From contig CAWJXU010000002.1 in assembly GCA_963846865.1 (NCBI GenBank), forward strand, positions 33,527-97,526: 64,000 nt of DNA, written 5' to 3'. Position 1 is the stretch's first letter. Every line of letters starts with the position of its first letter. The DNA comes from an uncultured Thermoleophilaceae bacterium. GTDB lineage: Bacteria > Actinomycetota > Thermoleophilia > Solirubrobacterales > Thermoleophilaceae. The notes under the pieces are model-generated. The model did not search any database. It saw only the letters and a list, made by a program, of their open reading frames with translations, and had not been told where the DNA came from. The position numbers and the translations under genes were made by a program. Positions 20,113 through 28,429 of the stretch are shown piece after piece.

Positions 20113-20156
20113 GCGCGCCCGTCAGGATCGAACCTGAGACCTTCGGTTCCGTGGAC
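20113..20156 (-). repeat. tRNA-Arg 3'-half copy no. 1 (diverged; anticodon loop to discriminator)
   Basis: gcgcgcccgtcaggatcgaacctgagaccttcggttccgtggac versus the tRNA segment 28355-28400 shows 3 substitutions and 1 deletion. Two of the substitutions are compensatory in the T stem. Confidence 0.75.
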
Positions 20157-20196
20157 CTGGCTTGAAGTTCGTCTGGGTTCGTCTGTTCGACATCGC

Positions 20197-20601
20197 CTAC
20201 TCCCGCAGCCCGGCGGCTTCGAGGGCTTCGGCGCGGTCGTTGTACTCCATCATCCGCAGCATCCTGTCGCCACGCACAGTGCTGACGTGGAACATCCGTT
20301 CTGTCACCTCGAGGGCGGACTCCCGGCCACGAGCACGCACGCTGATGGCGGAAAAGACCGCCCCGCCCGCATCGATGACCTCCTCCACTTCGGCATGGAA
20401 CGTCTCCCAGGGTTCGAACCACCGCTCGTTCCACCGAATCAGCGCATCGTGTCCGCGAATCGGCTCGTACTCCTCTACCGGGTGGTACTCGCAGTCGGGG
20501 TCCCACACCTTTCGGACATACGAAGCGAAGTCGTTGCTCACACCGGCCTGGTTGAACGCGACGTAGGCCTCTCGCACCACCCTCACGTTCTCCTGCGACA
20601 T
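20197..20601 (-). CDS. SnoaL/NTF2-like small protein (paralog C)
   Basis: MSQENVRVVREAYVAFN...AEALEAAGLRE. Confidence 0.7.
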   Translation of the reverse strand: MSQENVRVVREAYVAFNQAGVSNDFASYVRKVWDPDCEYHPVEEYEPIRGHDALIRWNERWFEPWETFHAEVEEVIDAGGAVFSAISVRARGRESALEVTERMFHVSTVRGDRMLRMMEYNDRAEALEAAGLRE

Positions 20602-20604
20602 CGC

Positions 20605-21003
20605 CTACTCCCGTAGCCCGGCGGCTTCGAGAGCCTCCTCTTTGGTTCGACACTCGCGCACTTCGGCGATCTTGCCGTTGCGGCACTTGTTCACGTAGAT
20701 CTCATCGACCGTAACTTCGGCGTCACTGTCGCGAATGCGACCAAGCATGCGTGCAGGCATCAGAACGTACTCACCAGCGTCGATGAATTCCCTGGCCTCC
20801 ATCCGGAAATCGGAAAGGACATCCATCCACCGTGCGGCCATCGCTCGAACTGCGTCGCGGCCACGAAAGGGGCCTGGGTCTGGCTCGTCGTGAAACGCGT
20901 ACCAGACGATGTCGGGGTCGAAGTGTGCGAGCCAGGCATCCACGTCACGGCGATTGAAGGCGACGGCCGCACCCCGGACGATCTCGACGTTCTCCTGCGA
21001 CAT
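20605..21003 (-). CDS. SnoaL/NTF2-like small protein (paralog D)
   Basis: MSQENVEIVRGAAVAFNRRD...EEALEAAGLRE. It stops 3 nt before the start of paralog C. Confidence 0.7.
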   Translation of the reverse strand: MSQENVEIVRGAAVAFNRRDVDAWLAHFDPDIVWYAFHDEPDPGPFRGRDAVRAMAARWMDVLSDFRMEAREFIDAGEYVLMPARMLGRIRDSDAEVTVDEIYVNKCRNGKIAEVRECRTKEEALEAAGLRE

Positions 21004-21020
21004 CGCCGCCCAGTATCCCC

Positions 21021-22607
21021 TTAGATCTCGAGTCGCGTCTCTTCTAGGTCGAGTTCGCGCTCGACCCGGCGCATGACCTCTCCCGAGATCAGGCCCTCGT
21101 TTCGCATGCGTACGATCGCCGCCCGCTGGGCTTCGATCACGTCATGCATCAGACGCTGGTAGGCGAGCGAGCGGTCGACGATTGCGTCGTCGTCTTCGAG
21201 GTCGCCACGCAGGGTCGCGAACCGGCGGCGACGGAAGCCGTAGAGCCTCCGCAGTCGCTCGACGCTGTCCTCGCGCGTCCACTCCTCCTCGGCAAGCCAG
21301 TCAAGCGCCTCGAGAGCGGCCTCGGCGGCGGCGATCCGCGCGGCGTGCTCCTCGGCTTCCTCCTCCGCGCCATCGTCAACCACTCCCAGTCGGCGGATCA
21401 GCACCGGCAGCGTCAGCCCTTGGACGACGACCGTGAACAGGACGACGCAGTAGGCGAGGAAGATCACTAGGTCGCGCTCTGGAAAGGGTGCGCCGGCGTC
21501 GGTTTCCAGCGGCAACGCGAGCGCTGCCGCGAGAGAAACGGCGCCGCGCATCCCCGCCCAACCGGTCACCACTCGCTCGGCTGCTCCGCTGCGGCGCGCG
21601 ACCTGGCTTGGACGACGGTCGAGCGCACGGATCATGTACGGGACCGTGAATAGCCATAAGAACCGCGTTCCGACGACAACGCCGATCGTCGCGAGGGCGT
21701 AGCCGGCGAGGGTGATCTCATCTATCCCGGCGACCGCGTCGAGGATGCTCGGGAGCTGAAGCCCGATGAGCACGAACAGCACCGCGTTGAGCAGGAAGAC
21801 GATGAACTCCCAGACCGCCCTGCCCTGCATCCGCATCTGCGCTGTCGAGACCTGGGGTGCCATCCAACCGAGGTAAAGCCCGGCTGTGACCGCGGCCAGC
21901 ACGCCCGAGACCCCGAGCGCCTCTGCCGGCAGGTAGGCGGCGAAGCCAGTGGCCAGCGAGATCGCGATCTCGACCGGCACGTCGTCGAGCCGTCGCCGCA
22001 GCTCGGCGATCGCGGCGCCGACCACTAGCCCCACGGCGATCCCGCCAAGCACGGCGACAACGAAGTCGACGCTGGCGTCAAGGAGCGAGAAGCTGCCGCC
22101 GATCGCAGCCACGACCGCAACCCGATATGCGATCAGGGCCGAGGCGTCGTTGACCAGGCTCTCGCCCTCGATCAGATTGACCAGCCGGCGGGGAGCGCCG
22201 AGTTGGCGGGCGATCGCCGTCGCCGCGATCGGGTCAGTCGGCGAGACGATGGCGCCGAGCGCGAACGCGACCGCCCAGGGCAGGTCGATCAGCTCATGGC
22301 CGACGACAGCAACCGCACAGGTCGTGACCAGCACCAGTCCGATCGATGTGAGCGACAGCGCGCGCGCATCGGCCCGCAGCGCCCGCAAATCCGCGAAGAA
22401 CGCTGCCACGTAAAGCAGCGGCGGCAGGAAGATCACCAGCACCAGGTCGGGGTCGAGCTCGACGTCGGGGACGCCGGGCAGATAGCCCAGCGGGATCGCC
22501 CCGAGCACGAACACGATCGGATACGGGACGTCGAGCAGGCGCGCGATCACGCCCAGCATCGGGATCGCGACGCACAGGCCAAGGATCAGGAGCTCGGTCT
22601 CGTGCAC
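21021..22607 (-). CDS. Na+/H+ antiporter, CPA1 (NhaP-type), 528 aa
   Basis: Intact ORF with about 12 TM helices, followed by a cytoplasmic C-terminal tail (..LYGFRRRRFATLRGDLEDDD..) typical of NhaP2-like antiporters. Confidence 0.8.
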   Translation of the reverse strand: MHETELLILGLCVAIPMLGVIARLLDVPYPIVFVLGAIPLGYLPGVPDVELDPDLVLVIFLPPLLYVAAFFADLRALRADARALSLTSIGLVLVTTCAVAVVGHELIDLPWAVAFALGAIVSPTDPIAATAIARQLGAPRRLVNLIEGESLVNDASALIAYRVAVVAAIGGSFSLLDASVDFVVAVLGGIAVGLVVGAAIAELRRRLDDVPVEIAISLATGFAAYLPAEALGVSGVLAAVTAGLYLGWMAPQVSTAQMRMQGRAVWEFIVFLLNAVLFVLIGLQLPSILDAVAGIDEITLAGYALATIGVVVGTRFLWLFTVPYMIRALDRRPSQVARRSGAAERVVTGWAGMRGAVSLAAALALPLETDAGAPFPERDLVIFLAYCVVLFTVVVQGLTLPVLIRRLGVVDDGAEEEAEEHAARIAAAEAALEALDWLAEEEWTREDSVERLRRLYGFRRRRFATLRGDLEDDDAIVDRSLAYQRLMHDVIEAQRAAIVRMRNEGLISGEVMRRVERELDLEETRLEI

Positions 22608-22712
22608 GGTCAGCTCCCGGGATTAAGGCGCTCGGTGCGGATCCACGTCAGCGTAGTGCGAGGCCGGTTGGCCGCTGGGAACACACCTGACCGGCGACGC
22701 TTTACTTCGAAA

Positions 22713-22757
22713 GCGCGCCCGACAGGATTCGAACCTGTGACCTTCGGTTCCGTAGAC
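22713..22757 (-). repeat. tRNA-Arg 3'-half copy no. 2
   Basis: 45/45 identical to 28355-28399 (gcgcgcccgacaggattcgaacctgtgaccttcggttccgtagac). Confidence 0.9.
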
Positions 22758-27277: not shown

Positions 27278-27305
27278 CCGTCTCTCGACGAGCGGGCTTC
27301 CGTGA

Positions 27306-27350
27306 GCGCGCCCGACAGGATTCGAACCTGTGACCTTCGGTTCCGTAGAC
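27306..27350 (-). repeat. tRNA-Arg 3'-half copy no. 4
   Basis: 45/45 identical to 28355-28399. Confidence 0.9.
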
Positions 27351-27502
27351 CTCGGACGCTGTTCGTTGGGGTGCGTTGGCATCCACCGGTCACGGTGTTC
27401 ACGGCGGATCGGACTCAGTGAGCAATGTTCGCGTTCGTCCGAGATCGGTCGGATGCGTTGCCCCGATGTTGCCCCACTTGAAGTCCTGGCGGGAGGGCGG
27501 TT

Positions 27503-27919
27503 TTACTCCCCAGCCCCAGCGGCTTCGAGGGCTTCGGCAGGCGTCGGGAAGTAGCGCACGCGCATGAACCGTTGTGGGCCGGTGCCGTCGTGGAAGTCGA
27601 GCAGCCAAGCCAGCTCTCGCGCGACCTCGAGTCCACTCCTCTCACCCTTGGCTCGCAGCCGCCCGACCATCAGGACGCTGTCGCCAAGGTCGCGGTAATC
27701 GTCCACCTCGACCTTGAACCACTCCCATGCGTCGGCGAGGTCGCGGAGAAACTGCCTGATCCCATCGTGGCCGCGATATGTCCCGACTCCGCCGGAGAGG
27801 CTGGCGAGGTAGGACACGTACTCGACGCTCGGATCGGCAATCTCCAGCAACGCGGCGAGATCCTCTCGGTTGAGCGCAGCGACCCATCCCTGTACAGCCT
27901 CGACGTTCTCCCGCGACAT
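27503..27919 (-). CDS. SnoaL/NTF2-like small protein (paralog E)
   Basis: MSRENVEAVQGWVAALNRED...AEALEAAGAGE. Confidence 0.7.
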   Translation of the reverse strand: MSRENVEAVQGWVAALNREDLAALLEIADPSVEYVSYLASLSGGVGTYRGHDGIRQFLRDLADAWEWFKVEVDDYRDLGDSVLMVGRLRAKGERSGLEVARELAWLLDFHDGTGPQRFMRVRYFPTPAEALEAAGAGE

Positions 27920-27922
27920 CGC

Positions 27923-28327
27923 CTACTCCCGCCGCCCCACGGCCTTGAGGGCGTCTACAGGGTCGCGAAACGCCCGCCACCGAAGGATGCGCCCGTCACG
28001 GAACTCGACGACCCAGCCCGCAGGCATCTTGTTCTCGACGCCGCTGGTCTTGCTGCGGTAGCGGAGGGAGCCGACGAGGACCGCTACGTCACGGACGGCG
28101 AGCGTGTCGTCAACGTCAGCGCGTGCCTCGTCCCACGCGTCACTGAGATCGCTCACCCACTGCCGGGCACCGTCGTGGCCGTGGTAGACGCCCCCCTCCT
28201 CGGCCAACTCCGCAAAGAACGAGTGCCACTCGACCTCGGGGTGGCTCAGCTCGATCAGGCCGGACGCGTCCCGTCGGGTCAGCGCATCCATGGCCTGTCG
28301 AGCCAGGTCCAAATTCTCCAGCGACAT
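27923..28327 (-). CDS. SnoaL/NTF2-like small protein (paralog F)
   Basis: From the internal ATG at 28327: MSLENLDLARQAMDALTRRD...VDALKAVGRRE. The longer ORF to 28441 is the antisense of the tRNA. Confidence 0.65.
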   Translation of the reverse strand: MSLENLDLARQAMDALTRRDASGLIELSHPEVEWHSFFAELAEEGGVYHGHDGARQWVSDLSDAWDEARADVDDTLAVRDVAVLVGSLRYRSKTSGVENKMPAGWVVEFRDGRILRWRAFRDPVDALKAVGRRE

Positions 28328-28355
28328 CGTCCGCGCAGTATCTCTGAACAGGAAG

Positions 28356-28429
28356 CGCGCCCGACAGGATTCGAACCTGTGACCTTCGGTTCCGTAGACC
28401 GACGCTCTATCCAGCTGAGCTACGGGCGC
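28356..28429 (-). tRNA. tRNA-Arg (anticodon ACG)
   Basis: The reverse complement GCGCCCGTAGCTCAGCTGGATAGAGCGTCGGTCTACGGAACCGAAGGTCACAGGTTCGAATCCTGTCGGGCGCG folds as a cloverleaf: 7-bp acceptor, loop CT-ACG-GA, T loop TTCGAAT. No encoded CCA. Confidence 0.9.

Follow-up and report, generated by a model that had tools for sequence, protein, structure and literature searches.

A tRNA-Arg(ACG) gene followed by copies of its 3' part

We analyzed 64,000 nucleotides (nt) of DNA, hereafter the window, from an uncultured Thermoleophilaceae bacterium (contig CAWJXU010000002.1 of assembly GCA_963846865.1, positions 33,527 to 97,526), in which four segments, named cassettes A to D, are stacked behind a tRNA-Arg(ACG) gene, each of them ended by a copy of the tRNA 3' part. 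ARAGORN detected three tRNAs in the window, among them this gene, which is intact and obtained 70.2 bits with the Rfam tRNA model. ARAGORN and Rfam found only one tRNA-Arg and no whole pseudo-tRNA in the window, and Rfam gave no RNA family other than the true tRNA at the array. The copies (F1 to F4) were delimited by a sensitive blastn-short search of the 64-kb window with the whole tRNA as query.

tRNA-Arg(ACG), 28355-28429, minus strand: intact gene (ARAGORN, Rfam); nt 30-75 form the putative att core, with a predicted attB/attL role.
F1, 27306-27351, minus strand: tRNA nt 30-75, 46/46 identical.
F2, 26430-26475, minus strand: tRNA nt 32-75 exact (44/44 at 26430-26473); nt 31 changed from G to C.
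F3, 22713-22758, minus strand: tRNA nt 30-75, 46/46 identical.
F4, 20113-20157, minus strand: diverged copy, 42/46 identical including one 1-nt deletion.

The rest of the 64 kb contained no comparable copy of the tRNA-Arg. A first-pass annotation, made from the sequence alone, had described an intact tRNA-Arg(ACG) followed by four co-oriented copies of its 3' segment, perfect at 27306, 26430 and 22713 and diverged at 20113, all located downstream of the tRNA 3' end. This arrangement was borne out, every fragment being co-oriented with the tRNA and downstream of its 3' end, and F4 is indeed the diverged copy. Perfect identity held at 27306 and 22713 but not at 26430: the 45-mer used in that annotation gave no mismatch at 28355, 27306 and 22713 and one mismatch at 26430, where identity begins at nt 32 (0.00 matches were expected in shuffled sequence). 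The repeat corresponds to gene nt 30-75 (28355-28400 in the window) plus one T after it, and thus extends 1 nt beyond the tRNA end. With the anticodon at nt 35-37, this places the start of the repeat in the 5' strand of the anticodon stem. The copies do share a break point, as had been proposed, but it lies at nt 30-32, just before the anticodon loop and not strictly within it. Over 13 loci, the 3' boundary of the repeats was the tRNA end plus 1 nt and the 5' boundary fell at nt 29-33 in all 100%-identical copies, which is not the picture of decayed tandem tRNA duplicates with variable breaks. The anticodon stem/loop is a sublocation typical of tRNA-targeting tyrosine integrases. Exact repeats that start there and end at the tRNA 3' end support the reading of the copies as att duplications.

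The segments between the copies are listed below from the tRNA outward, with the conserved P arm and P' hairpin described further on; E-values refer to a hidden Markov model (HMM) of the P arm.

Cassette D, 27352-28354, minus strand, 1003 bp, presumably the newest: SnoaL leader, two SnoaL_2 genes (27923-28327 and 27503-27919, minus strand; Pfam) and a complete type II P arm (27352-27475, with similarity to ~27538; E=1.7e-23).
Cassette C, 26476-27305, 830 bp: degenerate P' hairpin (27278-27305), cupredoxin lipoprotein gene (26831-27277, plus strand; Pfam Cupredoxin_1 at 26.2 bits, just below the 27-bit cut-off) and a complete type I P arm (26476-26600; E=5.5e-27; by motif searches, two GGGGCAAC at 26580-26600 and CAGACGAAC at 26558 and 26495).
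Cassette B, 22759-26429, minus strand, 3671 bp: intact P' hairpin (26400-26424; dG -17.7 kcal/mol), gene for an M14 carboxypeptidase with an RTX tail (22946-26215, minus strand; Pfam Peptidase_M14 and eight HemolysinCabind repeats) and a degenerate P arm (22759-22824; keeps GGAATCGCTACGTAGAGCGG and CTCAGCCGA, GGGGCAAC and CAGACGAAC repeats lost; partial HMM match, E=7e-4).
Cassette A, 20158-22712, minus strand, 2555 bp, presumably the oldest bounded one: NhaP gene (21021-22607, minus strand; Pfam Na_H_Exchanger), two SnoaL_2 genes (20605-21003 and 20197-20601, minus strand; Pfam) and ~35 nt of a truncated P arm (20158-20191, two CAGACGAAC, directly after the stop codon; partial HMM match, E=0.02).
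Third SnoaL_2 pair, 19622-20017 and 19190-19597, minus strand: GC 0.62 (Pfam; gene calls on contig L001).

Pfam matched the genes previously named for these segments (SnoaL pairs, cupredoxin lipoprotein, M14 peptidase with RTX tail and NhaP). The GC content of the cassettes (0.62-0.70) deviates from that of the left core (0.75). The start of the array had been placed at 20113; the low-GC tract begins instead at ~19100, where GC drops from ~0.75 to ~0.62, and takes in the third SnoaL_2 pair beyond the last fragment. This pair abuts a convergent core GT4 gene (18164-19201), and neither a fragment nor an arm (no HMM match) was found beyond it. It is either the tRNA's ancestral downstream neighbor or a cassette of greater age that has lost its end.

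The same site in related genomes

Identity to the window is 98.4-99.1% for contigs L001 and L002 of the ENA metagenome ERZ25039550, and over the parts that they cover the array is unchanged. The start of L001 and the end of L002 (window ~24190 and ~26103) both lie inside the M14/RTX gene, and the window spans the ~1.9-kb gap with no N; strain heterogeneity or a coverage problem may explain why both contigs stop there.

For more distant comparisons, an exodeoxyribonuclease III gene served as synteny anchor; its ortholog adjoins tRNA-Arg in all relatives. In the window this xthA-like gene is the core neighbor upstream of the tRNA, outside the mobile unit (28457-29245, minus strand; Pfam Exo_endo_phos). 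Scanning of the GTDB species representatives with it yielded five Thermoleophilaceae metagenome-assembled genomes (MAGs), in which synteny covers xthA and tRNA-Arg and does not extend to the downstream region. Two fragments were present in L003, one plus a 14-nt remnant in L004, and none in L005 and L007. The intervening genes of the MAGs are not those of the window; they encode an E3_binding protein, an SfLAP membrane protein and an 831-aa alpha/beta hydrolase, and no integrase was seen among them. A fragment-junction pattern built to exclude intact tRNA retrieved 13 Joint Genome Institute (JGI) metagenome contigs, all with fragments and several with an intact tRNA and one or two bounded segments, a bounded segment having the tRNA or a fragment at one side and a fragment at the other. 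An XthA search and context look-ups added six further loci. L003, L004, L012, L027 and L028 bear arrays, and the site is empty in L005, L007, L030 and L032. The upstream neighbors were xthA, an epimerase and an MFS gene, or a sigma/anti-sigma pair.

Over all loci, 21 bounded segments were obtained, measuring 489-5193 bp (median ~1.5 kb) and often holding a single gene. The comparison with related genomes, which the first-pass annotation had proposed as a check, gave 0-3 fragments per locus with differing cargo; the segments are not core genes syntenic everywhere. This cargo included a methyltransferase/ArsR-rhodanese/MFS set, an ABC-2 transporter with an ECF sigma factor, a PMT-like glycosyltransferase, lipoproteins, SfLAP, alpha/beta hydrolase, HicAB and many SnoaL_2 proteins, encoded on either strand relative to the conserved module.

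SnoaL_2 proteins were by far the commonest cargo, with an MSQENVE... N-terminus, an ...EALEAAGLRE C-terminus and a conserved leader, GGGAGATACTGGGYGGGCGATG. SnoaL_2 genes also directly follow the tRNA at the fragment-free sites L005 and L007, and in L028 (11142-16813) the ~6 kb downstream of tRNA-Arg hold seven of them, besides a HicAB pair and a TetR gene. NTF2-like folds serve as immunity proteins in polymorphic-toxin systems. By analogy, SnoaL_2 proteins of an immunity type might fit the RTX, HicAB and small-membrane-protein cargo.

A conserved arm and hairpin accompany the fragments

The flanks of the fragments were compared in tRNA orientation. The island-side flank is conserved between genomes and the cargo is not. 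From the alignments, the type I arm begins with GGGGCAAC-ATT-GGGGCAAC-GCACGCCACGGATCC-CAGACGAAC-TCG, followed by ~20 variable nt, GAATCGCTACCTAGAGCG and N7, and continues with CCGTACG-CAGACGAAC-T-CAGACGAAC-TTCAGGCGA, which is joined to the 46-nt tRNA part GGTCTACGG...GGGCGCGC. The complete arm measures ~125 nt and contains GGGGCAAC twice and CAGACGAAC three times. Type II arms have the distal half in common with type I, read ...GGTGGACCC-ACCGCAC-CCAACGAACAGCGTCCGA on the core side, and always stand after a SnoaL stop codon. Cassette D is 85% identical to L016 over 235 nt and to L010 over 203 nt.

The P-arm HMM, built on 124 positions, matched only beside fragments, with E-values of 1e-18 to 1e-30; the matches were in L004, L010-L012, L015, L016, L018, L019, L021, L022, L027 and L028. 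In the window, full matches were obtained at 26476-26600 and 27352-27475 and partial ones at 22747-22824 and 20160-20191, and all occurrences of CAGACGAAC and of the double GGGGCAAC in the 64 kb are confined to arms. At least 12 Thermoleophilaceae contigs have this module next to cargo of unrelated kinds. With distance from the tRNA, the arms of the window degrade: those of D and C are complete, that of B is degenerate and that of A truncated. At the other side of the cassettes, a P' hairpin, GAAGCCCGCTC-TTA-GAGCGGGTTTC, is kept at 10 cassette starts and resembles a terminator; its stem measures 11-13 bp, its dG lies between -14 and -22 kcal/mol and its tail is rich in T. In the window, the hairpin at 26400-26424 is intact, and those after 27306 and 22713 are degenerate.

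RNAalifold found essentially no covariation in the arm (term -0.57), and compensatory pairs only in the tRNA T stem. The arm has no conserved stem and no attC-like folded palindrome; what is conserved is the direct repeats, whose motifs are invariant in the alignment. We therefore read the arm as a stretch of DNA to which protein binds. It is laid out like a complex attP, the direct repeats being spaced by roughly one helical turn next to the core, and the repeats look like arm-type and accessory-protein binding sites, to which we infer that an integrase binds.

Two relatives show other arrangements of the module. In L021, the first 87 P-arm positions (234-320) are separated from the fragment (1112-1157) by a 248-aa open reading frame (ORF, 351-1097), which looks like insertion of a gene within the arm. 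In L031 (14406-20822), a fragment and P' hairpin are followed by more than 6 kb of hydrophobic ORFs of 45-196 aa and an RTX protein; a 584-bp piece of it, with ORFs of 94 and 82 aa, is 85% identical to L029 16261-16844, where it stands in another context.

Cassettes are present or absent as units

Several comparisons between genomes bear on this, and two of them (L029 with L030, and the window with L050) are clean contrasts of occupied and empty sites. L029 and L030 are 94% identical in the flank beyond the site, and only L029 contains a 589-bp HicAB segment, which is bounded by the tRNA and a fragment and has exact att boundaries. The cupredoxin cassette occurs in three contexts: in the window, in L034 (96% identity) and in L050 (88%). 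In L034 it is placed between two fragments and its distal neighbor is an MMPL gene, not the M14 cassette. In L050, the P' side of cassette C directly joins the intact tRNA and cassette D is exactly absent. Finally, an ortholog of the SnoaL_2 gene Sno3 (92%) directly follows the tRNA in L007 and comes after the most distal fragment in L003, positions which are predicted if newcomers push older genes outward.

F4 supplies a further indication. Two of its four differences form a compensatory change of a T-stem pair (nt 50 A to T, nt 66 T to A). At the first T-stem pair, A-U stands in the window tRNA and the three proximal fragments and U-A in F4; U-A is also found in the live tRNAs of L003, L027, L032 and L050, and in L012, as in the window, the tRNA and the distal fragment differ in the T-stem allele. 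A compensatory difference restricted to the displaced copy fits replacement of the tRNA 3' half and not local duplication. F4 is therefore likely to be the displaced original 3' half of the host tRNA, as judged by its pairing.

The many contigs of ~1 kb carrying the cupredoxin gene were considered as excised circles; their size does not support such an inference, because the median contig of the collection is itself ~1 kb, and L034 and L050 are linear chromosomal sequences.

Search for a recombinase

In agreement with the earlier reading of the segments as lacking an integrase, Pfam gave no recombinase domain in any array ORF. Array DNA outside genes and modules amounts to less than 0.8 kb, which leaves no space for an integrase remnant. 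Among the scanned ORFs of the 21 bounded cassettes, a set that excluded the L016 cassette ORF and most ORFs of L003 and L004, there was no recombinase Pfam match either. Integrase-sized window ORFs and those with a low G+C content at third codon positions (GC3) were submitted to Pfam and corresponded to transporters, kinases, glycosyltransferases and a DUF559 protein, with no recombinase; the remaining window ORFs were read by eye, again with no recombinase, and outside 10.6-38.9 kb the annotation was partly of this kind. With the arm motifs, IMG/VR returned only unrelated phages, matched either through iteron-like AACCCAGACGAAC repeats in contigs of 50% GC or within coding sequence.

Several candidates were discarded. 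L031 had a phage-like appearance and was examined as a helper element; its proteins gave no Pfam or PHROG hits and are small hydrophobic membrane proteins. In relatives, the unannotated proteins of 352, 383 and 230 aa encoded beside the tRNA proved to be secreted or membrane proteins and not recombinases. The XthA-like EEP nuclease is a conserved housekeeping exodeoxyribonuclease III, and was rejected as an actor because it is present also at empty sites. In public phage and plasmid data, several Klebsiella prophage records start within ~10 nt of a match to the tRNA-Arg(ACG) 3' part, which suggests that this tRNA species is a common integration target in unrelated bacteria.

Proposed mechanism and alternative explanations

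Taken together, we consider it probable that the array is made of small non-autonomous cassettes, serially and site-specifically integrated at the anticodon stem/loop of tRNA-Arg(ACG) by a tyrosine integrase acting in trans. A circular cassette would carry one attP-like module, composed of the ~125-nt P arm, the 46-nt tRNA 3' part and a short P' side, usually with the terminator-like hairpin, which would supply a terminator. A tyrosine integrase with an arm-binding domain, encoded on a helper element or on the chromosome, would recombine this module with the tRNA. After the crossover, the cassette's own 46 nt would complete the tRNA gene, and the old tRNA 3' half would be left behind the P arm of the cassette. 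Each newcomer would take the place adjacent to the tRNA and push earlier cassettes outward, giving the arrival order A, B, C, D in the window, with which the decay of the arms with distance agrees. C and D, with complete arms, would be potentially mobilizable and such cassettes may still be moving, whereas A and B would be eroded and becoming fixed. The first-pass annotation had offered decayed islands and cargo mobilized in trans as alternatives; each fits one half of the array, mobilization in trans the two tRNA-proximal segments, whose complete arms are common to cassettes with unrelated cargo, and decay the two distal ones, whose arms are degenerate or truncated.

Several results weigh against this proposal. 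The array is the same in a 98-99% identical strain, which indicates no very recent turnover. The sequences compared all come from metagenome assemblies or MAGs and showed neither an excised circle nor an attP junction, and homologous recombination between the 46-nt direct repeats could also yield some of the absences. No recombinase was found within ~10 kb of 15 related loci, IMG/VR gave 0 matches to the junction pattern and to the tRNA 3' part, and in PLSDB and INPHARED the module matched only through the tRNA part, to tRNA-Arg genes of other organisms. An excisionase or a helper element with the att module was likewise found neither in the scanned or read ORFs of the window and the 15 loci nor in IMG/VR, PLSDB and INPHARED. 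Besides, two of the four window cassettes have decayed arms, and a third, shorter arm type occurs in some cassettes of relatives.

The degenerate distal arms and the heterogeneity of arm types are also what would be expected if the segments were passive relics, of the CIME type discussed below and with no biology peculiar to cassettes, of integrase-bearing islands, such as an actinomycete integrative and conjugative element (AICE), a prophage or an integrative and mobilizable element (IME), after deletion of the genes for integration, replication and transfer. Tandem arrays at tRNA genes are "generally decayed elements" (review PMC5704250), and full-length strain-variable elements may be under-represented in MAGs and short contigs. 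This explanation is possible especially for A and B. Against it, the 21 cassettes have no integrase among their scanned ORFs and no visible pseudogene debris, they are compact (down to 489-589 bp), and in many genomes complete 125-nt arms are retained beside cargo of unrelated kinds. Moreover, no full-length parent was found at 16 tRNA-Arg loci, in IMG/VR, PLSDB or INPHARED. For the array as a whole we judge it unlikely.

A local origin, by tandem duplication of the tRNA or of its 3' half with decay of the 5' halves and gene conversion maintaining identity, would explain why the sequence 5' of some fragments weakly resembles the tRNA D-stem region (AGCGTCCGA of the type II arm versus AGCGTCG of the tRNA; similarity reaching nt 22 in L029; Rfam 26 bits, E=0.07, at 27307-27359). 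However, these 5' flanks are homologous to each other across genomes and not to the tRNA, intact copies break at the same place, the intervening segments are mutually unrelated, the empty and occupied sites have exact att boundaries, and the distal fragment has a functional T-stem allele different from that of the resident tRNA. Such an origin is very improbable and largely refuted. It is just as hard to believe that the module is an RNA element of accessory genes, such as a tRNA-like 3' untranslated region or a signal for processing or stability, and not a recombination site. The T arm and the 3' strand of the acceptor do form part of it, GCGUCCG can pair with CGGGCGC in type II arms, and a terminator-like hairpin comes next; but the arm shows essentially no covariation, cargo lies on either strand relative to the module and conservation takes the form of direct-repeat motifs.

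Comparison with known systems

CIMEs (cis-mobilizable elements) have attL and attR at their ends and no genes for integration or transfer, and are described as products of the decay of ICEs (integrative and conjugative elements) or IMEs (PMC5704250). The cassettes integrated by a putative trans-acting integrase resemble the CIMEs of Streptococcus accretion arrays, which stand at tRNA genes or 3' gene ends, in being att-flanked, devoid of genes for integration and transfer and arranged one behind the other at a single target gene, and their mobilization would rely on the integrase of another element. For CIMEs, the integrases of the parent ICEs or IMEs are known, whereas the cassettes have no known parent; they are also mostly of single-gene size, have a long arm in common irrespective of cargo, and occur in many genomes of one actinobacterial family. 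In addition to the direct repeat and intact tRNA, variable presence and deviating GC, classical tRNA islands have an integrase, and the array does not.

Dehalococcoides ssrA islands are reportedly arranged in tandem and separated by ssrA 3'-end repeats, and are said to have their own serine recombinase and a repeat of ~20 nt of the tmRNA. The att identity block of tRNA-targeting integrases, treated by Williams in 2002 (Nucleic Acids Research, NAR), reportedly runs over ~45-58 nt from the anticodon loop/stem to the tRNA 3' end. Elements of the pSAM2, SLP1 and P4/lambda type have the same kind of block and a complex attP with arm repeats, as proposed here, and pSAM2 and SLP1 belong to the same host phylum, Actinomycetota. 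These elements reportedly have int and xis beside attP and measure at least 10 kb, whereas the cassettes have neither gene and are smaller.

Tycheposons have a tyrosine (910/937) or large serine recombinase and usually a replication module (bioRxiv 10.1101/2020.12.28.424599). The Prochlorococcus tycheposons share with the array tRNA integration, partial tRNAs between tandemly stacked elements, newcomers pushing older ones inward, adaptive environmental cargo and scattered partial-tRNA remnants. Unlike them, the cassettes carry neither a recombinase of their own nor a replication module.

With integron cassettes they have in common a small, mostly one-gene size, a conserved site on each unit, one fixed insertion site and no recombinase in the cassette. 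Integrons have intI and attI beside the array, whereas here neither was found, nor a Pc promoter, and the site is a tRNA gene; attC folds as a palindrome and the module does not. CALINs (clusters of attC sites lacking integron-integrases), a term associated with Cury et al. 2016, are reportedly attC arrays without integrase. The cassettes described here occur in either orientation and so presumably have their own promoters.

The array is functionally closest to CIMEs and to tycheposon partial-tRNA arrays, and is organized like an integron cassette array. It does not fit any of these classes fully, with no known parent ICE or IME, no recombinase or replication module, and no intI, attI or attC. 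A bolder and rather doubtful extension would be a lineage-wide, integron-like capture platform in Thermoleophilaceae, in which tRNA-Arg(ACG) is the dock and a dedicated recombinase, located on the host chromosome and not on a mobile helper, inserts, excises and shuffles cassettes of one to a few genes. The tRNA-Arg would then be the equivalent of attI, and that of attC would be a ~170-220-bp unit made of the P arm with its GGGGCAAC/CAGACGAAC repeats, the 46 nt and the hairpin; we hold this equivalence to be similarly tentative.

Other features of the window

A ~1-kb insertion (33725-34716) adjoins tRNA-Ser(GCT) (34717-34807, minus strand) immediately downstream of its 3' end. The single gene of the insertion (33731-34663, minus strand) encodes 310 aa, with AbiEi_4 and DUF559/MTES_1575 endonuclease-like domains. 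The insertion replaces the last codons of the adjacent MFS gene, with no visible duplication of a tRNA-Ser fragment. The 99%-identical L002 lacks the insertion and has ~33 nt instead.

Between 40729 and 52883, a three-gene unit occurs twice in tandem (40729-46202 and 47405-52883), as judged from translations only. Its products are a PQQ-like beta-propeller protein of ~620 aa that has a cupredoxin tail, an amidohydrolase-like protein of ~585 aa that bears a twin-arginine-like leader, and a secreted protein of ~620 aa, and the two copies are parted by a TetR-like gene and a small gene. A second cupredoxin-type lipoprotein gene (60387-60797), a paralog in kind of the cassette C cargo, is located in a core-looking region next to genes for cytochrome c, seryl-tRNA synthetase and Ku.

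Implications

Stacks of partial tRNAs are usually dismissed as island debris. What is new here is that the segments are not anonymous debris, as judged from their common arm and hairpin anatomy: in many uncultured soil Thermoleophilaceae a conserved module accompanies single accessory genes that have no integrase of their own, and its repeat motifs give a direct handle for finding the recombinase. If the cassettes do move in trans, the array would provide a concrete model for the growth of islands from material not recognizable as a mobile element, a question raised for the Prochlorococcus islands (bioRxiv 10.1101/2020.12.28.424599). It would also represent a second, independent solution to the integron problem, with single adaptive genes gathered and reshuffled at one safe site. 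In these bacteria, an essential tRNA gene would then be the landing pad, with its 3' half and its terminator coming from the cassette.

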